Notes under the pieces: model-generated
The model's database searches: none
What the model was told of the DNA's origin: nothing
Seen by the model: only the letters and a program-made list of their open reading frames with translations
In this document: positions 22,533 through 49,021 of the stretch, piece after piece
How positions within the stretch are numbered: position 1 is the first letter of the stretch
Layout: each line of letters begins with the position of its first letter
Source: Escherichia coli
GTDB lineage: Bacteria > Pseudomonadota > Gammaproteobacteria > Enterobacterales > Enterobacteriaceae
Length of the DNA: 64,000 bases
Assembly (NCBI RefSeq): GCF_044647545.1
Contig: NZ_CP172818.1
Reading direction: 5' to 3' (one strand)
Translations under genes and position numbers: made by a program

Positions 22533-22535
22533 GAA

Positions 22536-25339: not shown

Positions 25340-25985
25340 AGGGAAGCCAGGTCTCAGCAAAAAAGAAAAAAAGTTGCCGGTTTAGAAACGGAACAAGGTA
25401 AAGCTGATGTACTTGGTGGTGGCGTTTTTAAAAAGCGCCTTCACCGAAATCGTGAGCGTGCAATTATTCTGCAAAAGGGGAAAAAAATTGTTTTTACACT
25501 TTTTTATATAAAAAAAAGGATATGTCAAAAATAAATAGCAAGAAACGGCTTGGTTTCCGTAAACTCCAAAACATTTTCCCCTCCCTACCAAAACCCAAAC
25601 AAAAAAAAAGATTAAAACAAAAAAACAAACAGAAATCCCCTAGACCCGAAAAAAAAAAATAAAAAACCCCCGCTTTTGGGCATTCCCAACCCCGCGGCCC
25701 GGGTTTCCCCCCCCCATGCTTTTTCTCCCCAAAAAAAACGTACTTTTACAAAACCCCCCCCACCAGCACGCAAAAACTACAACCCGGTGAAAAAAAAAAA
25801 ACACGGGAAAAAAAAAAAAGGAAGCCACCCCCCTTCGCCCCCATCCCAAAACCAGCGTTTCAACAGCACAAAAAAAGGAAAAGGGGCGCAAACCCCCCAG
25901 GGGTTCTTTAAAAATCCCCAGCATGGTGGAAAAAAAAGGGGGGGGGGGGGGGGAGTAAAAAAAAAAGAAAAAAGTCATACCAGCC
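25340..25985. other. Homopolymer-rich low-complexity block, non-coding; probable artefact or non-native insertion
   Basis: Composition degrades from ordinary sequence into long A, C and G runs (for example G16 at 25938-25953, A-runs of 10-14); no frame resembles a real protein; boundaries approximate. Confidence 0.7.
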
Positions 25986-25987
25986 CC

Positions 25988-26062
25988 AATACCGGATGCG
26001 GCGTGAACGCCTAATCCACCCTACAGGTCAGGCGCGGTCTGTAGGCTGATAAGACGAAGCGG
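25988..26062. repeat. REP (repetitive extragenic palindromic) element, partly degenerate
   Basis: CCGGATGCGGCGTGAACGCC ... GTAGGCTGATAAGACG closely resembles E. coli REP units, with several mismatches in the first unit. Confidence 0.7.
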
Positions 26063-26064
26063 TT

Positions 26065-26517
26065 TTAATGCAGCCAGTGAACGCCCTCGGCAGGCTGAAA
26101 GAACGCGTTATAGCGCATCTGAAAAGCATTAATATCCTGCATTTCAGGTTCGGTTTCGCGCAGAAAACCCAGCGCCAGCCTGACCTGAGCATCAGTAATC
26201 GGCGCGGCAAGGCGGGCTTTTTGTAAAATCCGATGCCATTGCAGCATGTTCTGTTCGCTACCATCGACAATGACAATTTGCCAGATGAGCAACACCTGCG
26301 CGGCGTTTTGCAGGTGCGACTCATCCGGGCGATGCAAATAACGTAAAAATTCGTCACCGGCTGACTTTCCCATTTGATCGACCATCGACTCCACGGGTAC
26401 GACATCGATGTTCAGCCGATCGCTGAGACGGCGAATCGCTTTTCTGGCCCCGGATGTCAGCACCCGAAAACCAATCACAAACACTACCGCCAGCGTGGCG
26501 AGCATTATCCAGATCAT
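26065..26517 (-). CDS. yicN: DUF1198-family protein YicN
   Basis: About 150 codons from the ATG at 26517 inside track ORF 26065-26544; N-terminal TM segment. Confidence 0.8.
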   Translation of the reverse strand: MIWIMLATLAVVFVIGFRVLTSGARKAIRRLSDRLNIDVVPVESMVDQMGKSAGDEFLRYLHRPDESHLQNAAQVLLIWQIVIVDGSEQNMLQWHRILQKARLAAPITDAQVRLALGFLRETEPEMQDINAFQMRYNAFFQPAEGVHWLH

Positions 26518-26569
26518 GAGTTCTCCTGCGTAATCAGAACTCATAATATCTGGAAACCCTCGCCAGTTA

Positions 26570-27904
26570 CTAATCCACCAGAATAATCTTCAGTGCAAAC
26601 AGAGCTGCGACCACCACCACACACAGGTTCAGATCGCGCCAGCGCCCGGTGCACACTTTCATGATGCAGTACGACATAAAGCCGAGTGCAATCCCTTCGG
26701 TGATCGAGAAAGTAAAGGGCATCATCACCGTGGTAATAAATGCGGGCACCGATTCGGTAAAATCATCCCAGTTAACGCGCGCCAGGCTCGAAGTCATCAG
26801 CACGCCAACAAAGATTAACGCTCCGGCGGTTGCGTAAGGAGGAACCATCGCCACCAGCGGTGAGAAGAACATAACCAACAGGAACATAACGCCGACCACA
26901 ACCGCAGTCAGCCCCGTGCGACCACCGACAGCCACACCTGAAGTACTTTCAATATAGGCGGTAACAGACGAGGTACCGATAAACGCACCCGCCACCGAAC
27001 TGACGCTATCAACATACAGCGCCTTATTCATATTGGGGAATTTACCGTTACTATCTATTAAGCCAGCTTTATCAGTTACACCAATTAATGTTCCTGATGA
27101 ATCAAATAAGTTGATCAGCATAAAGGAGAAAATGATACCGGCGAGTTCAAGTGATAACGCGCCGCTCAAATCCACTTCACCAATGACGCCGCTAATATCA
27201 GGCGGAATGGAATAGACGCCGCTAAAATGAACATCACCGAAAAATAATCCACAGCAAGACGTCACCACAATAGAAACAAGCACCGCGGCATGAAAATGAC
27301 GTGATGACAACACGGTTATAATAAAAAACCCTAAAATACCTAACAACACGCCGTGAGAACTTAAATCGCCAATCATCACCAGGGTGTCTTTATTGGCGAC
27401 AATAACGCCAGTATTTTTTAATCCCATTAAGGCGATAAATAATCCGATTCCGCTGGTGATACCAATACGTAAACTTAATGGAATGTTGGAGATCATCCAG
27501 TACCGGATACGAAACAGCGTGAGCAAAAATAGCCCAACTGCGCCCCAGAATATCGCGCCCATCCCGGTCTGCCAGGAGATACCCATCGCCCCCACGACCA
27601 CGAACGCAAAGAAGGCGTTCAGCCCCATTGCCGGAGCCAGCGCCACGGGTAAGTTAGCAAATATCCCCATCGCAATACTGCCGATACCGGCAATCAAACA
27701 GGTGGTAACAAACACCACTTTCGGGTCCATTTGTGCCGCGCCGAGGATTTGCGGGTTCACAAAAACGATGTACACCATGGTTAAAAAAGTGGTCATCCCC
27801 GCAATCAATTCTGTGCGGACGGTGGTCCCATGCTGAGGTAGTTTAAATAATCGCGAAAGCGTCCCTGATTCATTACTCACGTAATCGGTATTGTCATTAT
27901 TCAT
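26570..27904 (-). CDS. adeQ: Adenine permease (NCS2/AzgA family)
   Basis: 444 codons from the ATG at 27904 (MNNDNTDYV) inside track ORF 26570-27982; divergent from ade. Confidence 0.9.
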   Translation of the reverse strand: MNNDNTDYVSNESGTLSRLFKLPQHGTTVRTELIAGMTTFLTMVYIVFVNPQILGAAQMDPKVVFVTTCLIAGIGSIAMGIFANLPVALAPAMGLNAFFAFVVVGAMGISWQTGMGAIFWGAVGLFLLTLFRIRYWMISNIPLSLRIGITSGIGLFIALMGLKNTGVIVANKDTLVMIGDLSSHGVLLGILGFFIITVLSSRHFHAAVLVSIVVTSCCGLFFGDVHFSGVYSIPPDISGVIGEVDLSGALSLELAGIIFSFMLINLFDSSGTLIGVTDKAGLIDSNGKFPNMNKALYVDSVSSVAGAFIGTSSVTAYIESTSGVAVGGRTGLTAVVVGVMFLLVMFFSPLVAMVPPYATAGALIFVGVLMTSSLARVNWDDFTESVPAFITTVMMPFTFSITEGIALGFMSYCIMKVCTGRWRDLNLCVVVVAALFALKIILVD

Positions 27905-28078
27905 TTTTTTGTCCATTGGAGGAGATTTAATCCCTTGCTTTTGTAAAACAAATGACAACAACGGTTCAGTGATAATTATCACATTTCAATTGCACATTAA
28001 TGGATATTCTTTAATAATCTCGCGACGTTTCTTTATGATAAATAATAATCAAATTGATAAAATCAAAATGAGAAAAAT

Positions 28079-29845
28079 ATGAATAATTCTATTAACCATA
28101 AATTTCATCACATTAGCCGGGCTGAATACCAGGAATTGTTAGCCGTTTCCCGTGGAGACGCTGTTGCCGATTATATTATTGATAATGTCTCTATTCTCGA
28201 CCTGATCAATGGCGGAGAAATTTCCGGCCCAATTGTGATTAAAGGACGTTACATTGCCGGTGTTGGCGCAGAATACGCTGATGCTCCGGCGTTGCAGCGG
28301 ATTGATGCCCGCGGCGCAACGGCGGTGCCAGGGTTTATTGATGCTCACCTGCATATTGAATCCAGCATGATGACGCCGGTCACTTTTGAAACCGCGACCC
28401 TGCCGCGCGGCCTGACGACCGTTATTTGCGACCCTCATGAAATCGTCAACGTGATGGGCGAAGCCGGATTCGCCTGGTTTGCCCGCTGTGCCGAACAGGC
28501 AAGGCAAAACCAGTACTTACAGGTCAGCTCTTGCGTACCCGCTCTGGAAGGCTGCGATGTTAACGGTGCCAGTTTTACCCTTGAACAGATGCTCGCCTGG
28601 CGGGACCATCCGCAGGTTACCGGCCTTGCAGAAATGATGGACTACCCTGGCGTAATTAGCGGGCAGAATGCGCTGCTCGATAAACTGGATGCATTTCGCC
28701 ACCTGACGCTGGACGGTCACTGCCCGGGTTTGGGTGGTAAAGAACTTAACGCCTATATTGCTGCGGGTATTGAAAACTGCCACGAAAGTTATCAGCTGGA
28801 AGAAGGACGCCGGAAATTGCAACTCGGCATGTCGTTGATGATCCGTGAAGGGTCCGCAGCCCGCAATCTCAACGCGCTGGCACCGTTGATCAACGAATTT
28901 AACAGCCCGCAATGCATGCTCTGTACCGATGACCGTAACCCGTGGGAGATCGCCCATGAAGGACACATCGATGCCTTAATTCGCCGCCTGATCGAACAAC
29001 ACAATGTACCGCTGCATGTGGCATATCGCGTAGCCAGCTGGTCGACGGCGCGCCATTTTGGTCTGAATCACCTCGGCTTACTGGCACCCGGCAAGCAGGC
29101 CGATATCGTCCTGTTGAGCGATGCGCGTAAGGTCACGGTGCAGCAGGTACTGGTGAAAGGCGAGCCGATCGATGCGCAAACCTTACAGGCGAAAGAGTCG
29201 GCGAGACTGGCACAATCCGCTCCGCCGTATGGCAATACCATTGCCCGCCAGCCTGTTTCCGCCAGCGACTTTGCCCTGCAATTCACGCCCGGAAAACGCT
29301 ATCGGGTCATTGACGTCATCCATAACGAATTGATTACCCACTCCCGCTCCAGCGTCTACAGCGAAAACGGTTTTGATCGCGATGATGTGTGCTTTATTGC
29401 CGTTCTTGAGCGTTACGGACAACGACTGGCTCCGGCCTGTGGTTTACTCGGCGGCTTTGGCCTGAATGAAGGTGCGCTGGCGGCGACGGTCAGCCATGAC
29501 AGCCATAATATTGTGGTGATAGGTCGTAGCGCAGAAGAGATGGCGCTGGCGGTCAATCAGGTGATTCAGGATGGCGGCGGGCTGTGCGTGGTCCGTAACG
29601 GTCAGGTACAAAGTCATCTACCGTTGCCCATTGCCGGGCTAATGAGCACCGACACGGCGCAGTCACTGGCGGAGCAAATTGACGCCTTGAAAGCCGCCGC
29701 CCGTGAATGCGGTCCGTTACCCGATGAGCCGTTTATTCAGATGGCGTTTCTTTCCCTGCCAGTGATCCCCGCGCTGAAACTAACCAGTCAGGGGCTGTTT
29801 GATGGCGAGAAGTTTGCCTTCACTACGCTGGAATTCACGGAATAA
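28079..29845 (+). CDS. ade: Adenine deaminase
   Basis: 588-codon amidohydrolase with metal-binding HxH motif ([10 protein letters not shown]). Confidence 0.95.
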
Positions 29846-29854
29846 TAAAAAAAA

Positions 29855-29873
29855 GCCCGGCGTCATGCCGGGC
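29855..29873 (-). terminator. Rho-independent terminator shared by convergent ade and uhpT
   Basis: GCCCGGC-GTCAT-GCCGGGC hairpin flanked by an A8 run on the + strand (U-run for the minus-strand uhpT transcript). Confidence 0.75.
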
Positions 29874-29891
29874 AAAAGTCACCAGTTACGT

Positions 29892-31283
29892 TTATGCCAC
29901 TGTCAACTGCTGAATTTTTTTCTCGCGGCGGATTTTGCGTTCTTCCATCACCGCCACTATCGCCATCAGGCAGATACAACCAATCGCGGCGATATCCAGC
30001 GCGGCGAAGGTGCCTGCCCAGCCGGTAAGGCCAAATACCGGCGTCCCATCGGCAATCATTCCCAGACCTAACTTGGCAAAGCTGTCACCAATCAGGTAAG
30101 CGAAGGTGCCTTTAATACCATCGGCAGCGCCAATCGCTTTTTTAGGTACAAAGCCAACAGCAGCTACACCAATCAACAATTGCGGGCCAAAGACCAGGAA
30201 ACCCAACGCAAAGAGAGAAGCAAGGTAGATATATTCGTTGCTGGCGTGTTGATACACACCGAGCGTGGCGATAATCAGCGCCAGCGCGATACAGGCCACC
30301 AGGCCACGGCGACCGTTCGCCAGGTCAGAGAGCCAGCCCCACAGCAGCGTACCGACCAGCGCACCAGCTTCAAACAGCGTAAAGCCCTGAATCGCCACCG
30401 CTTTAGAGAGTTTCAGTTCCTGGAACGCATACACGGTTGACCACTGGTCGATACCAATACGCACCACATAGAGGAAAATGTTGGCAAAGCACAGCAGCCA
30501 GATCACTTTGTTTTTCAGCACATACTCAACAAAGATCTGCCACTTGGTCATATCGGTAGATTCTGTCTCTTTATCCTCTTCACTGATCTCCTCGCCAAAC
30601 AGCTCTTCAGCTTTGCCGAGGCCATAAGATTCCGGGGAGTCGCTGCCGTAACGCAGACCGATAAAACCAACAATCAGCGCGATAATCGACGGGAAAATAA
30701 ACATGCCGATGACATGACCATCGAACAGGTAATTTGCGCCGAACAGCGCCACACCTGCTGCGCCTGCACCACCAAGGTTGTGAGAAATGTTCCAGAAACC
30801 GAGGAATGTCCCGCGTTTACGACGCGGCGTCCATTTGGTGATGGTGGAGTAACTGCACGAACCGCCGGTACTCTGGAAAAAGCCGCTTAAGGCGTAGAAG
30901 GCAATCATCAGGAACAGGCTAACCGAGCCGCTGCCCATACTGGCGCTGAAGCCCAGCATACAAATGGCAGACAGGATCAGCATGAACGGCAGGAATTGTT
31001 TGGTGTTTTTGCCGTCGGCGTAGTAAGAAACCAGCGTTTTACCCACGCCATAAGTGATGGAGAAGCCCAGGCCGATCATCCCCAGCTGCGTCATGCTCAA
31101 CCCGTAGGTCGAGATCATGTCGTTCTGCGCGATGTTAAAGTTCTTGCGAATCAGGTACATCGTAAGGTAGCCGATAAAGACCACCAGGTAGGATTGCATG
31201 AACGGTTTGAACCACATTTTGCGCCGCACTTCGAGCGGAAGGTCCAGGGTCGGCTTGCGAACCTGGTTTAAGAAAGCCAGCAT
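29892..31283 (-). CDS. uhpT: Hexose-6-phosphate:phosphate antiporter
   Basis: 463-codon MFS organophosphate:Pi antiporter. Confidence 0.95.
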
Positions 31284-31359
31284 GGGTTACTCCTGAAATG
31301 AATACCTGCGTGAGGCATGCATTGTAAAAATCAGCAGCAAATCAGGCCTGAGATAGCGT

Positions 31360-31374
31360 CCAGGCAAAACCTGG
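31360..31374 (-). promoter_or_regulatory. Inverted repeat in the uhpT promoter region, candidate UhpA binding site
   Basis: CCAGGCAAAACCTGG palindrome about 80 bp upstream of the uhpT start. Confidence 0.4.
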
Positions 31375-31420
31375 AAAATTTCTTAGTTTTGCCGGATATG
31401 AAGTGAAAAGGTGAGATGCA

Positions 31421-32743
31421 TCACGCTTCTCGCGGTGTCTGGGCGTTCAAAAAGGGCAGTAATAGCAGTGCGGAAATCCCGGCGGCGATGGCGATAACCA
31501 CAAAAAATCCGCTCCAGTGCCAGGTATCGAGTACTTTCGCCAGCGGCCAACCAGCAAGCGACGCACCAAGATAAGCAAACAAGCCGACAAATCCCGTCGC
31601 CGCCCCTGCTGCCTCTTTGTGGGAACACTCTGCCGCCGCCATGCCGATTAACATCTGCGGGCCAAAGACAAAAAAACCAATGGTGAAGAAGCAGGTTGCC
31701 TGCATCACGTAGCTGGCAAATGGCATCAGCCACAGCGAGCCGACTGAAAGCAAAATTCCGGCAGCGAAAATCAAATTCATCGGCCCGCGGTTGCCGTTAA
31801 AGAGTTTGTCCGAGCCCCAACCCGCTACCAGCGCACCGATAAATCCGCCCAGTTCAAACATCGTCACAGCCGTATTCGCCGTGACCAGATCGACGCCCAG
31901 CGTCTCGGACATATACAAATTGCCCCAGTCGTTGATCGCCGCCCGAACCACATAGACCAGCACATAGCAAAACGAAAGTAGCCAGATATACGGATTCAGC
32001 AACACATACTTGGTGAGGATCTCTTTACGCGTCAGCCCTGCCCCTTCTTGTTGTTGAGCAATCTCCAGCGCGTCGTGCCGCCATTCACCAACCGCTGGTA
32101 AACCTAACGCCTGCGGGCGATCGCGCAGCCGCCAGCAGAGAAAAATCCCCACGACGATCGCCATACAACCAGCAATCATCATCCCGGCACGCCAGCCGTA
32201 ATGCAGCGCAGCTGCTGCCATCACAATGGGAATGAGCGCACCGCCAACGTTATGCGCCGTGTTCCATAATGCCCACCAACCGCCGCGCTCGGTACGAGAA
32301 TACCAGGCGGTTAACAGACGCGCACACACCGGTGAACCCCAGCCCTGGAAAAAGGCGTTCAACACCCAGAGCACGGCAAACGCCCATAGCGACGTCGAGA
32401 AGCCAAACAGAATGTTGATAATGCCCGTGGCGATAAGCCCTATCCCCATAAAATAACGGGCATTTGAGCGGTCGCTGACAATGCCGGAGACAAACTTCGA
32501 CACGCCGTAAGTAATGTAAAACAGGGTCGCTAACAGGCCGATATCGCTACGGCTGAGCACGCCGTTAGCAAGGATTTCTGGTACGGCGGCGTTAAAACTT
32601 TTACGCGTGAAGTAAAACAGCGCGTAACCCAGCCAGATGGTCAGCAGAATATGCCGACGCCAGTAGCGATAGCGGGCATCAATTTCATGTTTATCAGTCA
32701 TTAATGGCGCATCGGCAGGCGCTTTCAGAAACGGCAACATCAT
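31421..32743 (-). CDS. uhpC: Membrane sensor protein UhpC (UhpT paralogue)
   Basis: About 440-codon MFS protein paralogous to UhpT, upstream of uhpT and downstream of uhpB. Confidence 0.93.
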   Translation of the reverse strand: MMLPFLKAPADAPLMTDKHEIDARYRYWRRHILLTIWLGYALFYFTRKSFNAAVPEILANGVLSRSDIGLLATLFYITYGVSKFVSGIVSDRSNARYFMGIGLIATGIINILFGFSTSLWAFAVLWVLNAFFQGWGSPVCARLLTAWYSRTERGGWWALWNTAHNVGGALIPIVMAAAALHYGWRAGMMIAGCMAIVVGIFLCWRLRDRPQALGLPAVGEWRHDALEIAQQQEGAGLTRKEILTKYVLLNPYIWLLSFCYVLVYVVRAAINDWGNLYMSETLGVDLVTANTAVTMFELGGFIGALVAGWGSDKLFNGNRGPMNLIFAAGILLSVGSLWLMPFASYVMQATCFFTIGFFVFGPQMLIGMAAAECSHKEAAGAATGFVGLFAYLGASLAGWPLAKVLDTWHWSGFFVVIAIAAGISALLLLPFLNAQTPREA

Positions 32744-32749
32744 CGAACC

Positions 32750-34255
32750 TTAGACATAGCGTTGAGGTAGAGAAACGCTGACACGCGTGCCGTGCAAACA
32801 GGAGATGGTCAAGGTGCCGCCCAGCGCCGTTACGCGCTCGCGCATTCCGGTGAGGCCAAAACCTTGTTGCCCGGAACCCGGCGGCAAACCGCTGCCATCG
32901 TCTTCAATTACCAGCATCAACCGTTCATCCTGCTGCCAGCCTTGCAGGGTGACCGCGCTGGCATCGGCATGTTTCACAATGTTGTTCAACCCTTCCTGGC
33001 AGACGCGAAACAGCGTCACGCGCTGGTTTTCGCTTAACGCTGATTCATCGATTCGCCATTCGAGATGACTGACAATGCCGCGCCCTTCCAGCTCCATTTC
33101 CCGCATCAGTGAGCGGATGGCCTGCTCCAGGGTGAGATCATCCAGCTGGCGCGGACGTAACCGCCCTAACAAACGGCGCACCGCATCGTAAACACCCAGC
33201 GACAGTTGTTCGATGAGCTGCCCGCTCTGCTTCACGCTGGCGTTATCTGCCGCCAGCCGCTGAACAATACCTGCTTGAGTACGAATAGCAGTGATGGTCT
33301 GACCGATATCGTCGTGCAGCTCACGCGCCACATCACGGCGCACGCTCTCTTCAGTTTCTAACAAACGTTCAGCCAGATGCTGATTGCGCGCTAGTTCCTT
33401 TTGCAGCGACTGGTTAAGTTCACGCAACCGCTGGATGCCTGCGCCCAGTAACAACCCTGTCAGACTTTGCACCAGCAGCGAGAGCAATAAATCCACCGAA
33501 TGATCGCGCCAGGTTTGACTGGCGATCAGCGCGATGGCGTTCATCAACGTCGCAATCAGCGCCCCTTGCCAGCCGTAGTGCCAGGCCAGCGCGATAATCG
33601 GCAGCGCCAGGCAGAATGGCGTAAAGCGCGACAGTTCGTCCGGCAATCCCAACTGGAGCCAGAGACTGATAACAAACAGCAGCAAGTACCAGACCAGATG
33701 CCGCCCGCGCCAGTTGATCGGTTGAGAAACTAACGACGGCCCGAGCGGCAGCCAGATGTTATTGGCGAGATAGTGCCAGAACACCAGACATATCGGGGCC
33801 AGCGTCAGGCCGCCAGTTAAAGTCAGCAACAGCGCATTCCACGACTCTTTCCCGTGCCAAAGCCAGGGCAGCGACTGCAACAACGCCGCCGCCGTCAGCG
33901 CCGCACCCTGTAACAGCAAGGTGCGCCAGTCACGTTGATGGCGATAGCGCGAGATCAGCGCCACGGGCAATAACGTCAGTAAACTACCGATCATCAATAA
34001 GGAGAAATGGGTTAAACCGACCGCCTGCATTAGCCAGTAAATCAGCAGCCACTCCGCACCCAGTAGCACCGGCCAGTATCCGCGCGGGCATTGCAGCATT
34101 AGCCCTAGCCGCAGGCCAAACGGAAATAACAGCACCGCCATATCAGGGCGCTCAACAAGGTGCAGGCTGATACTCCACAGGCAAAACCATGCGGCAGAGA
34201 AGATAAAAAAGCAGGCAATAACGGTAATTAAGCGAGAGAAAAACGTCTTCATCAC
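32750..34255 (-). CDS. uhpB: Sensor histidine kinase UhpB
   Basis: About 500-codon protein with N-terminal multi-TM domain and C-terminal HisKA_3/HATPase region (HDDIGQ motif). Confidence 0.93.
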
Positions 34256-34842
34256 CAGCCATCAAACATGCGGCGCGCCAGTTCAACGTCGTTACTGACG
34301 CCCAGTTTTTCCATCAGGTTAGCGCGATGGACGTGTACCGTTTTCGGTGACAAGCCCAGTTCGGCGGCAATCTCTTTCACCGCCATTCCTTGCGCCAGTT
34401 TTTCCGCCACCTGGCGTTCGCGTTTGGTCAGCGGGTCCTGGCGACCGGATGCCAGTTTAATGGCAATATCCGGCGTCAGATAACAGCCGCCCGTGGCAAC
34501 CGTATGCACCGCAGCAATCAGTTCGTCAGGGCTACAACGCTTGGAGAGAAAGCCGCGCGCCCCCGCGTTAAGCGCCTGCTCAACCAGCGCCGGACTGTCA
34601 TGAACAGAGAGCATAATCGTCGCCATACCTTTCGGCAGCTGGCTTAGCAGCTCCAGACCGGAGATATCGGGCATGGAGATATCGCAAATACACACCTGCA
34701 CACCGCGCCCCGGCAGCCCCGCCAACGCCTCGCGCCCCGAACCAAACTCGGCAACTACCTGCAAATCAGGTTCCAGCCCCAGCAGCTGCGCAAAGCCGGA
34801 GCGGACGATGAGGTGATCGTCTATAAGTGCAACGGTGATCAT
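34252..34842 (-). CDS. uhpA: NarL/FixJ-family response regulator UhpA
   Basis: 196 codons from the ATG at 34842 ([10 protein letters not shown]); receiver domain plus LuxR-type HTH; overlaps uhpB by 4 bp. Confidence 0.93.
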
Positions 34843-35149
34843 GATTGGGTCCTGGCGGATAAAAAACGCGCATACCTTAACGATAAGCGCGATGTTGTTC
34901 AAGTTGGATATGGGGTATGTATTCTTAATGATGTTGTCTTATCTCAAAACTTACGAAAGTAACGTTGTAGTTTATTCGAAAAACGAATTATTTGTAGTTC
35001 GATTGCAATATTCCTGAAAAATTTCTCCTCCTTCGAAATCTTTTCAGTAACAAAGATCATCCAAAACCTATAATCTTCACGGAACCTCATTAAGAGATCA
35101 TCCACGAGTCGTTATGAATATAATCCTCACCGTATTCGATAAAAGAAAT

Positions 35150-36737
35150 AAAAAATAAAACTAACAATCTATTGTTTTAAAAAAAAAAGGTTGGGAAAGA
35201 AGGGAAAAACAAGAAAAAAAATTTTTTCCCAAGAAAAAAAAAAACCGGGTAACAACAAACCGGGAAAAAAAAAAAAGGTTCCTGATAAAATACCCCCTAT
35301 CAACCGACAGAAACCTTGAACAACATAATACATTACCTATTCCTGAAATACTGAACAAGAAATAATTTTCGTTTTTTCCAACAATTAAAAATTCCAAAAA
35401 ATAAATCAGCAAAAAAATTCAAAAAAAATTCGGAAATTTTTCCAACCACAAAAAACTTATCCCAAAATCAGATGGCATTAATTTTAACCAAAAAAAGAAA
35501 ATGACCCCCCAATTTCGCCAAAGAAAAAAGGAAAAACCCCAAAAAAAATTTTTAAAATTAAAAAAAAAAAGAAATAATTAAGAATAATGATTTCTATATA
35601 TTAATGGCAACAAACAAATATTAAATTACAACACAACACAAACAAACTTTAAGTAAATTACTATACAAATCAATAACAATAACACCTTAACACACAAAAC
35701 AACCTACATTTCACAGTCATAACGAAAAAAATCATAAAACCACTCAATAAATAAAACACCGAAACAAATATAAAAAACATAAAAAAAAAAAAAAAAAAAA
35801 AACAAGAAAAAAAAAAAAAATAAAATAAAAATAAAAAAAAAAACGAAACGAAAAAATAATAAACAATAAAAGACCCCCACAAACAAACAAATCAAAACTA
35901 CACTCACTCCCCCTGATTGATTAAAAAAACATCTCTCAGATATAAAATACATAAAACAAACAAAAAAATAAATGAAAAAAAACAACAAATAAATAATTTA
36001 ATAATAAAAATAAAAATATTACGCAACAACAACTATCAACAAAAAAAATAAAAAAAAAAAACAAAGATAAGAAACGTAAGAAAAAAAAAAAAAAAAAAAA
36101 AAAAGACGAAAAAAAAAAAAAACTATGAATCCGAACAAGTAAAAAAAAAAAAAAAGAACAAACAATAACCAATCAAAAAAAAAAAAATAAATAAAAAAAA
36201 AAAATTCATTTAAAAAATGAAAAAAACACAAAAAAATAGAAAACAAAAAAAATAAAACAAACGGAAAAAAAAAAAAAAAAAAAAGAAGACTGAAGAAAAA
36301 AAATACTAAAAAAATAATTAATATTAAACCAAAAATAAAAAAAAATAAAAAATAAAAAACTAAAAAAACACAAAAAATCAACAAAAAATAAAAAAAAATA
36401 AACAAACCAAAAAAAAAAAAAAAAAAAAACGAAAACATTAAAATATATAACAAAATAAAAACTAAAAAAACAAAAAACAAACAAAAAAAAAAAAGAAATA
36501 ACAATAAAAAAAAAATTATAAACAACCAAAACAAATATAAAAAAAAAAACGAAAACAAAAAAAAATTAAAAAAAAAAAGAAAAATATAAAAAAAAAGAAA
36601 AAAGAAGAAAAATACAAAAAACAAAAAAATAAAAAAAAAAAAAAACACAAAAAAAAAAAAGAAAAACGAAAACAAGAAAAAAAAGAAAAATGTAAAATCA
36701 GCAAAATTCAGAAAATTTGAAAGAGAAAAAACCAAAA
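35150..36737. other. About 1.6 kb A-rich low-complexity block between uhpA and ilvN, non-coding; probable artefact or non-native insertion
   Basis: Long poly-A runs (up to about 23 nt) with sparse C, G and T; minus-strand track ORFs are poly-Phe/Leu artefacts of the T-rich complement; ends exactly at the ilvN stop codon; start approximate. Confidence 0.75.
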
Positions 36738-37028
36738 TTACTGAAAAAACACCACGATCTTGTTAAACATCGTCGGATTAGACTGATTACGCTGCACTTT
36801 CACCACATCTTCCAGCTTATCGATTTGGCTTATCACCTACTCCAGACGCTGGTCATCCTTGACCAGTAGCCAGATATGGCTTTTGTCGCTGTCCTGAATC
36901 GGCAGGCAGAGAATGCCTTCAACGTTAAAAGCGCGACGGGCAAAAAGCCCACAAACGTGAGTCATTACGCCCGGATGGTTGCGAACGGTGAGTTCGAGAA
37001 TCACGTTGTCATGAGTTGTGTTTTGCAT
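36738..37028 (-). pseudogene. ilvN: Acetolactate synthase I small subunit, reading frame interrupted by an in-frame TAG at codon 64
   Basis: First 63 codons match IlvN; TAG at 36837-36839; the same frame continues [32 protein letters not shown] to the TAA at 36738-36740. Confidence 0.8.
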
Positions 37029-37031
37029 GGC

Positions 37032-38720
37032 TTATTCCCCCACCATTTCAGTATTCGCCGCACCTGGCGGCACCATCGGGTACACTTTTTCTTCGGCATC
37101 AATACGCACATGGATCAGCGCCGGGCCAGGGCGATTGATGATTTCCTGTAATGCAGCCTGCGGATCGGTTTCGTTATTCAAATCACAGGTTTCGAGGCCG
37201 AATCCGGCGGCAATCTGCATAAAGTTGATTTTTCCCGGATAGGTAGCGGCAAAAACGCCCTGCTTGTAGAACAGACTCTGTTGCTGATGTACCAGCCCCA
37301 GCGCTTCGTTGTTCATCAGAATGATTTTGACATCCAGCTGATTTTCACTGGCGGTCGCCATCTCCTGAATATTCATCATCAGGCTGCCGTCGCCGGAGAA
37401 ACACAACACTTTGCGATCCGGGTTCGCCAGCGCTGCGCCAATCGCCGCAGGCAGGCCAAAGCCCATCGTGCCCAGCCCGCCGGAGGTCAGCCACTGGCGC
37501 GGGCGATTGAGCGGATAAGCCTGCGCCGTCCACATCTGATGCTGACCCACGTCGGTGGTGATAATCGCGCTGTCATCGACACAGGCGGCAACAGCGTTGA
37601 TCAGGCCGTAATGCGTTAACGGATCGCACGCTTTCGGGATTGGACACGGGAATTCGCGCTGCAAATCCGCCACCAACTGGTGCCACTCTGCACGCGGTTG
37701 CGCTTCCACCAGCGGGATCAATTGCGCCAGCACGTCATCAACATCCGCCTGAATCGCTACGTGCGGTTGCTTGATTTTGCCCAGCTCTGCACGGTCGATA
37801 TCGACATGAATGATTTTCGCATTCGGGCAGAACTGCTCGGTTTTGCCAATCGCCCGGTCATCAAAACGCGCACCGAGCACAATCAGCAGATCCGCCTCCT
37901 GCAGTATATAGTTGGTGCTGCGCACGCCGTGCATCCCCAGCATACCCAGCGACAGCGGATTCGCTTTTGGCAGCATGCCCAGCGCCATTAAGGTCATGGT
38001 AGTTGGCAATTGCGCTTTCTCTGCCAGTTCACGCACCCGTGCGGGCGCATTGATCACACCGCCGCCCAGATAAAGCACCGGGCGTTTGGCGGCGTTAATC
38101 ATTGCCGCTGCGTCACGAATGCTTTCTTCGCTAAAGGCGGGTGCGGCGGCTTTTTCTGCCATAGCTGGCTGTGCTTCAATCTCAAAAACCGCCGTTTGCA
38201 CATCTTTAGGAATGTCTATCCACACCGGGCCAGGGCGGCCTGATTGCGCAATGCGGAAGGCATCGCTCATGACCTGCGGGAGTTCTTCGATATGTCTGAC
38301 CAGATAGTTGTGTTTGGTGATGGGGATAGAGATGCCGTAGGTGTCCACTTCCTGGAAGGCGTCGGTGCCGATCATCGAGGCAGGAACCTGACCGGTGATG
38401 CAAATCAGCGGGATGGAATCCAGCCGCGCATCGGCAATGGCGGTCACCAGGTTAGTCGCACCCGGTCCGCTACAGGCCATACAGACCGCCGGTTTACCGT
38501 CGGTGCGCGCCATTCCCTGAGCGATAAACCCCGCGCCCTGTTCATGGCGAGCCAGAATATGGCGGATTTGCGTGCTTTGGCTTAAGGCATCGTAAACAGG
38601 CAGGATAGAACCGCCCGGAATGCCCGTCACAATCTTAATGCCCTGCTGTTCCAGGAAATGAACGATAAATTCTGCGCCGGTAAAGCGCTTACGCGTCGAT
38701 GTTGTGCCCGAACTTGCCAT
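37032..38720 (-). CDS. ilvB: Acetolactate synthase I large subunit
   Basis: 562-codon ThDP-dependent enzyme MASSGTTSTRKRFTGAEFIVHFLEQQGIKIV. Confidence 0.95.
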   Translation of the reverse strand: MASSGTTSTRKRFTGAEFIVHFLEQQGIKIVTGIPGGSILPVYDALSQSTQIRHILARHEQGAGFIAQGMARTDGKPAVCMACSGPGATNLVTAIADARLDSIPLICITGQVPASMIGTDAFQEVDTYGISIPITKHNYLVRHIEELPQVMSDAFRIAQSGRPGPVWIDIPKDVQTAVFEIEAQPAMAEKAAAPAFSEESIRDAAAMINAAKRPVLYLGGGVINAPARVRELAEKAQLPTTMTLMALGMLPKANPLSLGMLGMHGVRSTNYILQEADLLIVLGARFDDRAIGKTEQFCPNAKIIHVDIDRAELGKIKQPHVAIQADVDDVLAQLIPLVEAQPRAEWHQLVADLQREFPCPIPKACDPLTHYGLINAVAACVDDSAIITTDVGQHQMWTAQAYPLNRPRQWLTSGGLGTMGFGLPAAIGAALANPDRKVLCFSGDGSLMMNIQEMATASENQLDVKIILMNNEALGLVHQQQSLFYKQGVFAATYPGKINFMQIAAGFGLETCDLNNETDPQAALQEIINRPGPALIHVRIDAEEKVYPMVPPGAANTEMVGE

Positions 38721-38768
38721 GCTCCAGTCCTTTTCTTCTGGGCCGACTTTCCGGGAGGTGCTTAAACG

Positions 38769-38798
38769 AAAAACCCCGCCCGGTTTGCGCCGGCGGGG
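38769..38798 (-). terminator. ilvB attenuator terminator
   Basis: On the minus strand a CCCCGCC ... GGCGGGG hairpin followed by a U-run, between ivbL and ilvB. Confidence 0.75.
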
Positions 38799-38825
38799 TT
38801 TTGGAATCGTGTGTTGTTCCAGTCC

Positions 38826-38924
38826 CTACGGCGCATTGCCGACGACGACCACCACACGCACGACGACCACTGCGGCGGATGGCGCAGTTGGTAGTAGTTT
38901 TGCGTTGAGCATGGAAGTAGTCAT
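38826..38924 (-). CDS. ivbL: ilvB operon leader peptide
   Basis: 32-codon ORF MTTSMLNAKLLPTAPSAAVVVVRVVVVVGNAP rich in Val and Leu, upstream of the attenuator. Confidence 0.9.
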   Translation of the reverse strand: MTTSMLNAKLLPTAPSAAVVVVRVVVVVGNAP

Positions 38925-39049
38925 TGGGGACCTTGTTGGTTTTGTGTTTAACAATATTTATACAAGCACAGCTTTACAGGGGAGACAATGGAAAATTTTT
39001 CAGCAAGGGAAAATTGAGGGGTTGATCACGTTTTGTACTGAATTGCGGG

Positions 39050-39190
39050 TAACAAAAAACCCCGCCGGAGCGAGGTTTCGTCAGTCGCCTGCGGCTGGTA
39101 ACCGCAAAGCACACTGTATTATGTCAACACTGAAAGTATACGTGTTCCGCGCAGAACGCGCAATTTCGGCACGAATTTTGACGTATTTAG
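39050..39190 (-). ncRNA. istR: IstR small RNA region (IstR-1/IstR-2), antitoxin of tisB
   Basis: Minus-strand hairpin plus U-run terminator near 39054-39080; the segment near 39108-39128 is complementary to the tisAB leader near 39370-39390; transcript ends approximate. Confidence 0.55.
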
Positions 39191-39236
39191 TACATAGTTG
39201 AGTATCGTTCACAGTTTTCGTTTTGTCCAAATATTA

Positions 39237-39252
39237 CTGTTTATTTATACAG
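39237..39252. promoter_or_regulatory. LexA box between divergent istR-2 and tisAB
   Basis: CTGTTTATTTATACAG, a CTGT-N8-ACAG palindrome. Confidence 0.8.
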
Positions 39253-39488
39253 TAAACTTCTATAATATCACTGTACGCAATGTGTTATGCGGGGGCCGCA
39301 TCGTTACCCGGCGCACTAAGTCCTGGCTGAAACGGGTGGTGCCGTCAGCGCCTTAACCCCGCGTGAGCACACTGTGTTATGTCAACAAGCACAACGTTTC
39401 TCCTTGAGATACCGCGTGCACAACAGCTGGCAACAGGCAGCGGAAAGGTACGTCAGCTGGCAGTGCTCCTGAACCACAGGAGACGCGT

Positions 39489-39578
39489 ATGAGCCTGGTG
39501 GATATCGCCATTCTTATCCTCAAACTCATTGTTGCAGCACTGCAACTGCTTGATACTGTTCTGAAATACCTGAAGTAA
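39489..39578 (+). CDS. tisB: Type I toxin TisB (SOS-induced membrane peptide)
   Basis: 29-codon ORF MSLVDIAILILKLIVAALQLLDTVLKYLK. Confidence 0.9.
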   Translation: MSLVDIAILILKLIVAALQLLDTVLKYLK

Positions 39579-39857
39579 TTCAGATTCAAGTCGCACCAAA
39601 GGGGAGCGGGTAACCGCTCCCCTTTCATATTTAGCGTGCGGGTTGGTGTCGGATGCAATGCTGATGCATCTTATCCGCCCTACCATCCCTCCCGGCAACA
39701 TTTATTGCCGCTTTTGTTTACATATTCTGCCGCTAAACAATTCCCCATTCCTGGCGTATATCTGGCTAACATTTATCAATGTGATAGATTCCTCTCCCGC
39801 ATTTATGGGAATGCGTAGTGACTTATTCTAATTATTTTTATAAAAGCATCCGTGATA

Positions 39858-41042
39858 ATGAAAAGGCATAGAAACGTCAATTTGTTATTGATGTTGGTAT
39901 TACTCGTGGCCGTCGGTCAGATGGCGCAAACCATATATATTCCAGCTATTGCCGATATGGCGCGCGATCTCAACGTCCGTGAAGGGGCGGTGCAGAGCGT
40001 AATGGGCGCTTATCTGCTGACTTACGGTGTCTCACAGCTGTTTTATGGCCCGATTTCCGACCGTGTGGGTCGCCGACCGGTGATCCTCGTCGGAATGTCC
40101 ATTTTTATGCTGGCAACGCTGGTCGCGGTCACGACCTCCAGTTTGACAGTATTGATTGCCGCCAGCGCGATGCAGGGGATGGGCACCGGCGTTGGCGGCG
40201 TAATGGCGCGTACTTTGCCGCGTGATTTATATGAACGGACACAGTTGCGCCATGCTAATAGCCTGTTAAACATGGGAATTCTTGTCAGTCCGTTGCTCGC
40301 ACCGCTAATCGGCGGTCTGCTGGATACGATGTGGAACTGGCGCGCCTGTTATCTCTTTTTGTTGGTACTTTGTGCCGGTGTGACCTTCAGTATGGCCCGC
40401 TGGATGCCGGAAACGCGTCCGGTCGACGCACCGCGCACGCGCCTGCTTACCAGTTATAAAACGCTTTTCGGTAACAGCGGTTTTAACTGTTATTTGCTGA
40501 TGCTGATTGGCGGTCTGGCCGGGATTGCCGCCTTTGAAGCCTGCTCCGGCGTGCTGATGGGCGCGGTGTTAGGGTTGAGCAGTATGACGGTCAGTATTTT
40601 GTTTATTCTGCCGATTCCGGCGGCATTTTTTGGGGCATGGTTTGCCGGACGTCCTAATAAACGCTTCTCAACGTTGATGTGGCAGTCGGTTATCTGCTGC
40701 CTGCTGGCTGGCTTACTGATGTGGATCCCCGACTGGTTTGGCGTGATGAATGTCTGGACGCTGCTCGTTCCCGCCGCGCTGTTCTTTTTCGGTGCCGGGA
40801 TGCTGTTTCCGCTGGCGACCAGCGGCGCGATGGAGCCGTTCCCTTTCCTGGCGGGCACGGCTGGCGCGCTGGTCGGCGGTCTACAAAACATTGGTTCCGG
40901 CGTGCTGGCGTCGCTCTCTGCGATGTTGCCGCAAACCGGTCAGGGCAGCCTGGGGTTGTTGATGACCTTAATGGGATTGTTGATCGTGCTGTGCTGGCTA
41001 CCGCTGGCGACGCGGATGTCGCATCAGGGGCAGCCTGTTTAA
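39858..41042 (+). CDS. emrD: MFS multidrug efflux transporter EmrD
   Basis: 394 codons from ATG 39858 (MKRHRNVNLLLMLVLLVAVGQ); 12-TM MFS. Confidence 0.93.
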   Translation: MKRHRNVNLLLMLVLLVAVGQMAQTIYIPAIADMARDLNVREGAVQSVMGAYLLTYGVSQLFYGPISDRVGRRPVILVGMSIFMLATLVAVTTSSLTVLIAASAMQGMGTGVGGVMARTLPRDLYERTQLRHANSLLNMGILVSPLLAPLIGGLLDTMWNWRACYLFLLVLCAGVTFSMARWMPETRPVDAPRTRLLTSYKTLFGNSGFNCYLLMLIGGLAGIAAFEACSGVLMGAVLGLSSMTVSILFILPIPAAFFGAWFAGRPNKRFSTLMWQSVICCLLAGLLMWIPDWFGVMNVWTLLVPAALFFFGAGMLFPLATSGAMEPFPFLAGTAGALVGGLQNIGSGVLASLSAMLPQTGQGSLGLLMTLMGLLIVLCWLPLATRMSHQGQPV

Positions 41043-41049
41043 GCTCACG

Positions 41050-41547
41050 TCACCGCAGCATCGTCATCAGCTCCATGGGAGAACGATGCTGCTTTATCAG
41101 ATCACGCATCACCCGCATATGCGGCGCGGAGTAAGAATAAAACGCCTGATAGCCCGCACAAAGCACGTTGTCTGGCGTCTCCTCCCGAGCGTGCGGGCAC
41201 AGGCGATGCCAGTCGCACGCCTGGCAGCCACGACGCGGTTGCGGGTTTTCGCTGCCACACCATTTTTGTAGGGTGGCGTCAAAAAGCTCAATCGAAATAC
41301 GACTGATATCTGCCCGTACCCAACACTCGAACAGGGCAATTAAAAATTTCCCCCACAGCTCTGCTGTCACCGAAGCGGCCGTCAGATCGCCCCGGTCATC
41401 AAATTCAAGATGGGGAATAAGCTGTACGGAGCGGATACCCCGTTGTTTGAAATTGTGATAAAAATCGGCAGGTTGCAGAGCATCCTTGTACTCTACAACC
41501 AGTTTATGCCTGTCCTCTTCAGCATCAATGACCTGACTTCCTGTCAT
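41050..41547 (-). CDS. yidF: Truncated anaerobic-sulfatase-maturase-like protein (Cys-rich C-terminal domain only)
   Basis: 165-codon ORF with clustered Cys (CGSENPQPRRGCQACDWHRLC) but no radical-SAM CxxxCxxC core. Confidence 0.8.
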   Translation of the reverse strand: MTGSQVIDAEEDRHKLVVEYKDALQPADFYHNFKQRGIRSVQLIPHLEFDDRGDLTAASVTAELWGKFLIALFECWVRADISRISIELFDATLQKWCGSENPQPRRGCQACDWHRLCPHAREETPDNVLCAGYQAFYSYSAPHMRVMRDLIKQHRSPMELMTMLR

Positions 41548-41906
41548 GCGACTCTCTCAATAAATACGATAAGTTGATGTATATGCGTTACAGCAAACAG
41601 TATTGCGAGAGATAACACCGCGAGGGAGATCAAAAATTTGTCACGGACTACGTGAAATTGGGAAAAATCGCTATTCGTGACATCCATTAAATTGCGATTA
41701 CGGGTGTAGTGCCAGAGGATCAGCGCCACAATGGCGAGAATGCCAATCGAAATCCAGAATAACATGCCCGCCTGGTGCCAGTTGTGTTTGATAGCCAACG
41801 CCATCAACGCGCCGTAGCCCAGCATGGTACGAAACCACGCCAGTGATGTACGCTCCGGCTGCAGCCCTGGGTCGGCAATGCGTCTGGCTTTGCGGCTATC
41901 CGGCAT
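41544..41906 (-). CDS. yidG: Small inner membrane protein YidG
   Basis: 120-codon ORF with three predicted TM helices; overlaps yidF and yidH. Confidence 0.8.
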   Translation of the reverse strand: MPDSRKARRIADPGLQPERTSLAWFRTMLGYGALMALAIKHNWHQAGMLFWISIGILAIVALILWHYTRNRNLMDVTNSDFSQFHVVRDKFLISLAVLSLAILFAVTHIHQLIVFIERVA

Positions 41907-42243
41907 ACAACACCAGTCCCATAACGATCACCGCCACGACCATCAATATTAAGCTGATGATTAATAAGCTGTTGGTGTAGGGCAGGTCCTCTTTCAGACG
42001 CATCGCTTTTTCATTGCGTAACCAGCGCAGGTAGCCATACATCGCTAACCCGCCGGAAAACAGACACAACAACAACGCCAGCAGTTCGCGAATGACGGGC
42101 GTGGCGAAATCTGGCGCAAGTTGATCAAGCCCAACCCCCGCCGCCAGAAAGCCTAGTGCGGTACGGATCCACGCCAGAAAAGTACGCTCATTAGCCAGCG
42201 AGAAGCGATAATCAGGTGCTTCTCCGAGGCGGGAAATTTTCAT
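41896..42243 (-). CDS. yidH: Small inner membrane protein YidH (DUF202)
   Basis: 115-codon hydrophobic ORF. Confidence 0.8.
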   Translation of the reverse strand: MKISRLGEAPDYRFSLANERTFLAWIRTALGFLAAGVGLDQLAPDFATPVIRELLALLLCLFSGGLAMYGYLRWLRNEKAMRLKEDLPYTNSLLIISLILMVVAVIVMGLVLYAG

Positions 42244-42302
42244 TGTTGCTCCTTAACTGTTCCTCGCCGAAAAAAGTAGGCCAGGAAAACAGCAATAATG
42301 CA

Positions 42303-43796
42303 TCAGAACTTCTGTTTTTTCTCTTCCACCTTCACCCCTTGTGTCGGTAGGCCGGTGTCATAGTCGCGTACCACTGGCGAATAGCCATCTTGTGGGCGTG
42401 GACGAAACGCCCCCATCCAGCGCGGTCGTGCATCTTTACGCCACGGACGCAGACTCCATTGGTAACTGCGGAACGGATCGCGAATTTTGTCCATGTAATC
42501 CAATAAGGCGTCATGCATTTTGCGGCGAACGTCGGCAAAACGGATATCATCGATCAGATTATGCATTTCATTTGAATCATTACGGCGATCGTAAAGTTCA
42601 TCACTGGTGAAGAGGTTGAGTACCAGTTTAAAGTCATCCGTCACCCAGCAACGCACCGGAATAAAACCGCCAAAGCTGTCATGCTCAATCTCGTAGCGGT
42701 TAAATTCCACCATTACACCGCGTGGCTCTTTCACGGCAAGGATATTTTCCCCCGGCAGAATCTCTGGTTTTTCAATATCTGCCAGCGCCATCATTGTCGG
42801 CAGTAAATCGATATGACTGACTGGCGTATCGACCTGTCGCCGCTCCCCTTGCGGCGAACGGATGATCAGCGGAATGCGGGTGATGTCGTCATACATCGCC
42901 GCCCCTTTACTGATCAGCTTATGTGCGCCCATCATTTCGCCGTGATCGGAGGTATAAATAACCCACGTATTTTCACGTTGCTCTGGCGTTAAGGCATTGA
43001 TGACCCGTCCGATTTGGTCATCAACAAAGTCATTGCAGGCAAAATAGAGCGGATGGTGATAAAGCCCGTCATCACCGACTGGCGATGGCATCGCCTGCGC
43101 CCATAAGCGGTGATGTTCCGGTTTGTTCGCCAGGTCATCCTGTGATTTCTCGCCAAGTTCGTAGTAAAAATCAGCGTATTTCTCTAAATACTCCACCGGA
43201 CAGGTGAACGGGTGATGCGGCTCATCATACGAAACCACCATCAGGAAGGGTTCCTCGGCGCGCGCGGGCTGTTGCAGAAAATCTACCGCCCGATTGCTGA
43301 TGCGGTGCGCCCAGGTGAAGGTTTCGTCGATATGGTTCGCCTGTAAATCCTCAACGCTGTTTAGGCCATTGCGCCACAGGCTGATCTCTTTTTCCGTCAG
43401 TTCGCTAAGGTAGTTCGCCCCATCGAACCAGTAATCAGCGTCCCACTCCGGCGGACACTCGCCAGTGCCGAAATAGTCATGACCGTCGAGATGCCATTTG
43501 CCGATGTAACAGGTGTGATAGCCCGCATCCTTAAAGTAGCGTCCCATAGTGGAGATGTTTTTGCCCGGCGCGACGTTGTTGGTCCACGGGCCGGACTGGT
43601 TAGCGTAGATACCGGTAAACAGCCCGGCGCGCGCTGGTGTACAAACCGGTGAACAGGTGTAGGCGGAATTAAAGCGAATACTTTCCGCCGCCAGACTATC
43701 AATATTTTGCGTATTCAGCGGCTTACCGCTATAGCAACCGACCATATTGGTGGCCTGGGTATCGGTCATGATGAACAGAAAATTGGGGCGTTTCAT
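42303..43796 (-). CDS. yidJ: Cys-type sulfatase
   Basis: 497-codon ORF with sulfatase signature CTPARAGLFTG (C-x-P-x-R formylglycine motif). Confidence 0.9.
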   Translation of the reverse strand: MKRPNFLFIMTDTQATNMVGCYSGKPLNTQNIDSLAAESIRFNSAYTCSPVCTPARAGLFTGIYANQSGPWTNNVAPGKNISTMGRYFKDAGYHTCYIGKWHLDGHDYFGTGECPPEWDADYWFDGANYLSELTEKEISLWRNGLNSVEDLQANHIDETFTWAHRISNRAVDFLQQPARAEEPFLMVVSYDEPHHPFTCPVEYLEKYADFYYELGEKSQDDLANKPEHHRLWAQAMPSPVGDDGLYHHPLYFACNDFVDDQIGRVINALTPEQRENTWVIYTSDHGEMMGAHKLISKGAAMYDDITRIPLIIRSPQGERRQVDTPVSHIDLLPTMMALADIEKPEILPGENILAVKEPRGVMVEFNRYEIEHDSFGGFIPVRCWVTDDFKLVLNLFTSDELYDRRNDSNEMHNLIDDIRFADVRRKMHDALLDYMDKIRDPFRSYQWSLRPWRKDARPRWMGAFRPRPQDGYSPVVRDYDTGLPTQGVKVEEKKQKF

Positions 43797-45508
43797 AGGC
43801 TATCCTTCGCGTCGGGAGTAAAGGTTACGGCTGGGTCGTGACGATGCCGCCAGCTGTCAAAAATCAGGTAGACAATCACTACGGCAGCGATGAAATAACT
43901 GATCATCGCTAACCAGCGCGTACCGTAGCCGCCGAATTCAGCCAGCCCGGCATAGACGCCAATCATAGCGAACAGGATGCCAATTGACGCGATCTTGACG
44001 TTTTTCCACGGTTTCATGTCCACCGCAAACGCATCTTTGAAGGTGAACGGCGTGGCGCGCGGTTTGATAAAACCGATCACCAGCATCACGACCACGTTGA
44101 TGCAGAACGTACAGGCCAGCACATAGAGGAAATGGAAGTCGAACTTCACCAGATAGTTGATGGTGATGTAGCTGATTATGCCAATCCCCATCGCCACTTT
44201 TGCCGCCAGCGCTGGAATGCGCGGGAAGAAAAAGCCCATAATGATGATGGTAACCAGCGGCACGTTGTAAATACCGTTGAGCTGTTTCATCCAGCTATAC
44301 AGCCCCTGCGGCGCGTTGGCGATCCACGGCGCGACCAGCACCGAAACGATAGCGATAAAGAAACCAAATTTGCGCCCGACGGTGACCAGCTGCTGCGGCT
44401 CGGCATTCTGGTTAATGATGCGACGGTAAATACCCATACTGAATAACGTACTGGCGCTATTCAGAAAGCCGTTGAAGGTACTGATCACCGCACCAAATAA
44501 CACCGCGCCGAAGAAACCCACCAGTGGCACTGGCAGAACGTTATTGACCAGCGTCGGGTAGGCCATGTCGGCTTTCGGTAGATCCTGATACAGATGAAAC
44601 GCAATCAACCCTGGCAGCACCAGTACCAGCGGGTCGAGCATTTTCAGCACCGCCGTTAACAGCGCCCCCTTTTGCCCTTCCGCCAGGCTTTTTGACGCCA
44701 GCGTGCGTTGCACGATGCCCTGATTTGTACACCAGTAAAAGGTGTTCACCAGAATCAAACCGGTAAATGCCGCGCCAATCGGCAAGGGATCGGTCGGGCC
44801 ACCGACTGAGTTTAATTTCTCGGCGTGAACGGTGGTGAGTTGCTCAATGCCCTGCATAAAGCTGCCCTTGCCCATCGCGATCAGGCCAAATATCGGCACC
44901 ATCAACCCGCCAATAACCAGCCCAATACCGTTGATGGAGTCCGCCACTGCCATTGCGCGCAGTCCGCCGATCACCGCATACAAAATTCCCGCCAGACCAA
45001 GCAAAATTACCAATAGCCAGATAGCCGCACCGTGAGAAATCTGTAGCGATTCCCCGACGTGAAACAGGCTGTTGAGCGCCAACGCGCCGGAGTAGAGAAC
45101 AATCGGCAGAAAGCAGACGCCGGTGGCAATGAGGAAGCAGAAGTCGATGATAATACGCGTCGTTTTATCATAACGTTCCTCCAGAAAATCGGGGATGGTG
45201 GCAATGCCGCGCTTCAGATAGCGTGGTAAAAAGATTAGCGCGAGGAAGATCAGCGTCACCGCTGAAGTCACTTCCCAGCCCATCACCGACATGCCGCTTT
45301 TGTAGGCCTGCCCGGAAAGACCAACCAGTTGTTCCGTGGAAAGGTTGGTTAACATTAACGAAGCGGCAATAACCGGCGCTTTTAGTGAACGTCCGGCAAG
45401 AAAATAGCCTTGTTGCGATCCGGTATCTGTTTTGCGAACCTTCCACCAGGTGATGATCGCCACCAGCAGCGTAAAACCGACAAAACTCAAGATTTGTAAC
45501 GAATTCAT
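43793..45508 (-). CDS. yidK: Sodium:solute symporter (SSS) family transporter
   Basis: 571-codon polytopic membrane protein; start overlaps the yidJ stop. Confidence 0.9.
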   Translation of the reverse strand: MNSLQILSFVGFTLLVAIITWWKVRKTDTGSQQGYFLAGRSLKAPVIAASLMLTNLSTEQLVGLSGQAYKSGMSVMGWEVTSAVTLIFLALIFLPRYLKRGIATIPDFLEERYDKTTRIIIDFCFLIATGVCFLPIVLYSGALALNSLFHVGESLQISHGAAIWLLVILLGLAGILYAVIGGLRAMAVADSINGIGLVIGGLMVPIFGLIAMGKGSFMQGIEQLTTVHAEKLNSVGGPTDPLPIGAAFTGLILVNTFYWCTNQGIVQRTLASKSLAEGQKGALLTAVLKMLDPLVLVLPGLIAFHLYQDLPKADMAYPTLVNNVLPVPLVGFFGAVLFGAVISTFNGFLNSASTLFSMGIYRRIINQNAEPQQLVTVGRKFGFFIAIVSVLVAPWIANAPQGLYSWMKQLNGIYNVPLVTIIIMGFFFPRIPALAAKVAMGIGIISYITINYLVKFDFHFLYVLACTFCINVVVMLVIGFIKPRATPFTFKDAFAVDMKPWKNVKIASIGILFAMIGVYAGLAEFGGYGTRWLAMISYFIAAVVIVYLIFDSWRHRHDPAVTFTPDAKDSL

Positions 45509-45674
45509 CTCATAGCCCTTATTTATGTTTATGTCCCGGACGCATGAATATAGGGAGAGGTAAAATGCGTCGGGTCAGGCAGTCAGATTCTTAAAATACA
45601 AACATCGTATCCCTGAACGGATTGTTTTCTGTTAAGTTCAGGTTGTGAGCATAATTCGCCGGAGGGATATTAAA

Positions 45675-49021
<3,347 letters not shown>

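Follow-up and report, generated by a model that had tools for sequence, protein, structure and literature searches.

An amber-containing ilvN gene in an Escherichia coli chromosome record as a probable mosaic of a native and a paralogous copy

The ilvN locus and its degraded neighbour

The ilvN gene of the Escherichia coli contig NZ_CP172818.1 was analysed within a window of 64,000 nucleotides, the whole stretch of DNA under study (Table 1). The gene lies directly downstream of ilvB, which ends 3 nt upstream of it, in the context of the ivbL-ilvB-ilvN operon, and this ilvB-ilvN synteny is the same in strains RS571 and WB61 and in K-12. Translation of the minus strand gives 63 IlvN codons, a TAG, 32 further residues and a TAA, confirming the preliminary description, which had reported an in-frame stop followed by IlvN-like sequence. 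Compared with normal IlvN (WP_001181706, a protein identical to PDB 2LVW and 6LPI), the differences are N57K, Q64*, M65V, D84N, and A92V, and nothing else differs; the five residues listed in that description were thus exact, and alignment of the gene to the reference established that normal IlvN carries Q64, with no stop there.

Like native E. coli IlvN (PDB 2LVW, 5YPP, 6LPI), the window copy occupies the place after ilvB, is identical over the first 56 residues and shares the backbone bases of the ST648-like allele; unlike it, the window copy has the in-frame TAG64 and four substitutions. The Pfam domain ACT_AHAS_ss (PF22629) spans IlvN residues 11-77, and the reading frame across it is broken by the TAG at codon 64. 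A product stopping at residue 63 would lose the last 14 ACT-domain positions together with the C-terminal tail. No amber-suppressor tRNA gene was found in the window, whose sole tRNA gene is selC. This tRNA-Sec gene (19581-19675) is a classic site of island integration.

Table 1. Features at and around ilvN in the window.
Feature	Coordinates	Strand
uhpA, intact, left neighbour of the degraded insert	34252..34842	minus
Degraded copy (about 1.8 kb) of the natural 3.4-kb uhpA-ilvN insert	34923..36737	
ilvN (AHAS I small subunit), 96 codons, native/remnant mosaic with in-frame TAG	36738..37028	minus
Ten remnant-type bases amid ten native-type bases at other discriminating sites	36754..36960	
Amber codon, ilvN codon 64 (CAG>TAG; plus-strand G>A at 36839)	36837..36839	minus
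ilvB, intact, 100% identical to RS571	37032..38720	minus

A few patches aside, the window matches an ST648-like E. coli chromosome read in reverse complement. The nearest relatives compared were RS571 (NZ_CP034389.1) and WB61 (NZ_CP020025.1), the latter being as close as RS571 around ilvN. Substitutions relative to RS571 number 0 over 25986-34922, 0 over 36961-56009 and 1 over 3851-15019; the two zero counts apply to WB61 as well. Between 36738 and 46779 there are 10 nucleotide differences from RS571, all 10 of them inside ilvN (36754-36960); the chance of such clustering is about 1e-21, and the local excess of changes is therefore real. The gene aligns without gaps, its changes being substitutions only, with neither indels nor homopolymers; half of the ten are non-synonymous, the stop included, and five are G>A on the plus strand. 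The preliminary description had placed the substitutions most densely where ilvN abuts the adjoining A-rich block. The local excess stands, but the changes extend over the gene's 3' 223 nt, which correspond to the region of homology with a paralogous remnant described below, and show no decay gradient like that of the block.

In LR-28, RS571, and WB61, a natural 3.4-kb insert lies between uhpA and ilvN and contains two hypothetical genes. In LR-28 (L001) these lie at 1726-3165 and 3443-3925 and encode hypothetical proteins of 479 and 160 aa; RS571 and WB61 have a frameshift in the larger gene, and neither protein gave a match in PADLOC or NCBIfam. The degraded block of the window is demonstrably colinear with the LR-28 insert only over its left ~500 nt. 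From 34923 to about 35140 it consists of the reference sequence minus bases, nearly all of them G; further right, T and C dropouts and changes to A appear, identity falling to 76% by 35286-35378, and the right part is about 90% A+T, dominated by A, with A runs of 20 or more. When the full block was aligned globally to the LR-28 insert, the result was set aside, since past about 35450 it is uninformative, A-rich sequence aligning to any A's. The last base of the block immediately adjoins the ilvN stop codon, at the point where homology to K-12 resumes, and the first ilvN change is 17 nt away. Its signature of dropouts, changes to A and homopolymer runs is not seen in ilvN. The sequence of the block is non-biological, so the record is locally defective.

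Two further patches of this kind occur in the window. The second (25273-25985) shows G dropouts and changes to A, followed by A10, C8, and G16 runs; it worsens from left to right, stops abruptly and covers a relE/HTH toxin-antitoxin pair that lies between yicN and nepI in RS571 and is absent from K-12. In the third (46779-46803), about 505 nt of RS571 (22247-22753) have shrunk to an A-rich 23-mer. This RS571 segment lies inside a 6-phospho-alpha-glucosidase gene and is missing in K-12, whose glvG is a pseudogene. All three degraded patches thus fall in DNA without a K-12 counterpart, and each breaks off abruptly where K-12 homology returns. At the other two re-anchoring points, 25986 and 46804, there is no mosaic, and neither has a paralogue. 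It is thus non-core DNA that is mangled in the record.

A paralogous ilvN remnant and the mosaic

Many E. coli strains have a second ilvN-like locus, a pseudogenised remnant of about 240 nt, homologous to native ilvN over cds 50-291. Its neighbours are a DeoR regulator, a PfkB/ribokinase-like kinase and a FucP/MFS permease; the neighbourhood is a deoQ/deoK/deoP-like deoxyribose island, present in at least 1,568 of 5,426 complete genomes, WB61 included, and occurring in both pathogenic and commensal E. coli. The deoK operon is reported to be island-borne and thought to come from Salmonella (PMC5382810). The remnant's own changes are K57, TAG64, V65, N84, and V92, and also Y74, and in PGAP annotation it appears either as an "acetolactate synthase small subunit" pseudogene or as an "ACT domain-containing protein". 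The remnant allele that supplies the TAG is a common one, already annotated as a pseudogene. In WB61 the native ilvN (L015) is intact and the deoK-island remnant (L009) is also present. The remnant bases used here were taken from WB61, which is of the same lineage; for RS571, the comparison is limited to the count of places matching ilvN, which is two.

All ten ilvN differences in the window equal the base of the WB61 remnant, an agreement with a chance of about 2.5e-16 for random substitutions. The remnant-type bases stand at 36754, 36771, 36779, 36836, 36839, 36855, 36858, 36876, 36948, and 36960, and the TAG64 base is present in the WB61 remnant and also in contigs L002 and L004-L006. With the remnant the window copy shares K57, TAG64, V65, N84, and V92, and the synonymous bases at cds 69, 81, 153, 174, and 258. 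Unlike the remnant, it has native bases at cds 73, 100, 113, 139, 207, 220 (the remnant's Y74), 237, 249, and 273, and it sits in the ivbL-ilvB-ilvN context with no DeoR regulator beside it: downstream of remnant loci the order is DeoR-PfkB-MFS, whereas directly after the stop codon of the window copy lies the degraded uhpA-ilvN insert instead of a DeoR-family regulator.

At the 20 sites (cds 50-291) that separate the remnant from the native allele the window reads NPNPNNNPPPPPNNNNPPNP, with 10 remnant-type and 10 native-type bases in 10 runs. Random mixing would give 11 +/- 2.2 runs, and the probability of three runs or fewer is 1e-4. The type switches between the adjacent bases cds 249/250, and also at 273/275. 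Donor bases do not form one or a few contiguous tracts, as a conversion tract would, but at least five patches within 207 nt. The even split in 10 runs fits site-by-site 50:50 mixing and not a conversion tract.

This combination of bases was searched for elsewhere. Among the 5,426 complete genomes there was no exact match to window cds 139-215 (best 98.7%) or to cds 195-291 (best 96.9%, the native allele). No gene on record has the window-type open reading frame after the TAG; the remnant-type frame after the TAG has been recorded in 5,242 blocks. When the 63-aa product was looked up by exact match in public assemblies, 64 blocks were returned, 55 of them on contigs shorter than 2 kb and none on contigs longer than 1 Mb, so that the product is confined to fragmentary or metagenomic contigs. 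Contigs L004-L006 are native up to a single switch point between cds 139 and 153, are remnant-type beyond it and continue into deoQ; L003 (3415-3620) has an N-gap, or scaffold gap, directly after the TAG, at the join; and L002 (6001-6291), a metagenome scaffold with a remnant-type, TAG-containing 3' end in native context, found no match among complete genomes (best 98.1%). These contigs, L002-L006, look like repeat-induced chimeras. The contig types that carry the 63-aa product, the gap in L003 and the unmatched sequence of L002 thus demonstrate that the paralogue repeat yields assembly chimeras.

Like the window, contigs L002-L007 have native ilvB and a native ilvN 5' end, followed by remnant-type bases that include the TAG; they differ in making one clean switch (cds 139-153 or 153-171), whereas the window makes nine. 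Nine switches are as expected of per-site majority calls and not of a path switch in an assembly graph. In metagenome and Logan contigs that join native ilvB to a remnant-type ilvN 3' end, the product is recorded as a 63-aa ACT-domain protein.

Origin of the amber-containing copy

The ilvN of the window is probably a consensus artefact of two collapsed paralogues, a chimera of native ilvN and the deoK-island remnant. A second copy present in the same lineage accounts for each departure from the nearest genome, the two types are mixed site by site at about 1:1 with many switches and no contiguous tract, and the resulting base combination is absent from finished genomes. Two sources would have been available in one lineage, an intact native ilvN and a pseudogenised remnant elsewhere on the chromosome. 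DNA outside the conserved core would not have been reconstructed, leaving the degraded blocks 25273-25985, 34923-36737, and 46779-46803, and on re-anchoring at ilvN both copies would have been blended base by base at about 1:1. The pattern of the window is what would result if two single-copy paralogues were piled up 1:1 and each site were called by majority. The source of each variant base, the 50:50 pattern, its uniqueness and the position of the site beside the degraded block can be read directly from the sequences compared; the mixing itself may have taken place during read mapping, consensus calling, polishing or another reconstruction step. The error signatures of the block and of the ilvN mosaic differ, so the two need not share one mechanism. 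Since TAG64 is native to the remnant and the copies appear blended, the amber codon would belong to the remnant, and the AHAS I regulatory subunit of the strain is most likely intact.

Ectopic gene conversion from the deoK-island remnant into native ilvN, with patchy mismatch repair and an amber that truly truncates and inactivates IlvN, is an unlikely alternative. Donor and recipient do coexist in the lineage, every change is donor-derived and the changes are restricted to the region of homology (cds 50-291); heteroduplex repair could in principle leave patchy real conversions. However, at least five donor patches in 207 nt, switches between adjacent bases and a run count equal to the random-mixing expectation are hard to reconcile with such an event; no conversion of this kind was seen in the 5,426 complete genomes, and the mosaic abuts a non-biological block in a record that holds two more such patches. 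If the conversion were real, a dead fragment hitch-hiking on an acquired island would have poisoned its living paralogue in an ST648-like E. coli, implanting an amber codon and disabling the valine-sensing regulatory subunit of AHAS I.

Still less probable is a natural, early-branching TAG-type ilvN allele brought into the native locus from another lineage by homologous recombination. Eight of the changes are common to L002 and L004-L006 and could be read as shared derived characters; but at cds 69 and 81 the window agrees with the IS-truncated remnant rather than with L002-L006, and the allele is missing from the complete genomes and from the gene index, where the remnant-type frame fills 5,242 blocks. 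Moreover, the 100% identity of ilvB to RS571 extends to the very edge of ilvN.

A nonsense mutation arising de novo, with selection on the ilvN 3' end relaxed thereafter, would accommodate the five non-synonymous changes among ten, the stop among them, but the identical five amino-acid changes already exist in the remnant. This course of events is very improbable also from the surroundings, which show 0 substitutions from the relatives and thus leave no time for ten local mutations. Random corruption spilling from the A-rich block into ilvN, to which adjacency (17 nt) and the five plus-strand G>A changes might point, is scarcely credible in a gene without deletions or homopolymers in which ten of ten changes are the base of a real allele. 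The ten remnant bases of ten (about 2.5e-16) therefore rule out both block-type corruption and a de novo nonsense mutation with local decay. Nor can the ilvN changes be put down to an A-bias: of the 11 sites at which one allele has A on the plus strand, no more than 7 show A in the window. The suggestion, made from the sequence at first reading, that ilvN suffered the same corruption as the block was thus right in suspecting an artefact and wrong as to its mechanism, the changes being remnant bases throughout and free of indels. The companion suggestion, that AHAS I might genuinely have a truncated regulatory subunit, did not survive: the changes are the remnant's own, they are interleaved with native bases and the pattern is in no finished genome. 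As a biological feature, the truncated ilvN is most likely not real.

The case is a minor one biologically, and a real loss of IlvN would be mild and private to the strain. E. coli strains other than K-12 have other AHAS isozymes, and it is for this reason that the loss would be mild. The greater weight falls on quality control, the window containing at least three non-biological degraded patches, all in non-core DNA; apparent pseudogenes that adjoin such patches are not to be trusted. In public short-read and metagenome assemblies, chimeric "truncated IlvN" calls arise repeatedly from the pair formed by ilvN and its deoK-island remnant.

Other departures from the nearest genomes

Two general origins for the irregularities of the record were considered, neither of them favoured. 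Reconstruction on a K-12 template would agree with the position of the patches at breaks in K-12 homology, but the region 56010-60828 is not K-12-like (124 mismatches), and no template bases are retained. An autoregressive generative origin, to which the decay from left to right and the abrupt return to normal sequence at a gene boundary might point, is opposed by stretches of 9-19 kb with zero substitutions, which argue for copied real data.

Among the smaller departures, a clean junction at 15017 (15017-15555) skips 6.7 kb of RS571 (80832 to 74116, a PTS-fructose/aldolase island), and the approximately 530 nt of non-K-12 DNA retained nearby have single-base indels at 15201, 15287, and 15381. 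At 23857-23904, the ~18-kb RS571 island with iatC, eilA, and type III secretion genes (47391-65275) is missing, and a K-12-like empty site of 46 nt with 2 mismatches to K-12 is found. Small indels occur at 42254-42289, where GTA is lost and A's are gained, and at 62980-62982, a 9-nt deletion; both are junctions where K-12 carries extra DNA (yidI, and 137 nt near yidB/gyrB, respectively) that is lacking in the lineage of the window. At 42254, WB61 differs from the window just as RS571 does. Finally, 56010-60828 (the dgo/yidA region) carries 43 substitutions relative to RS571, mostly transitions and with no indels, and looks like ordinary natural divergence or a recombination tract.
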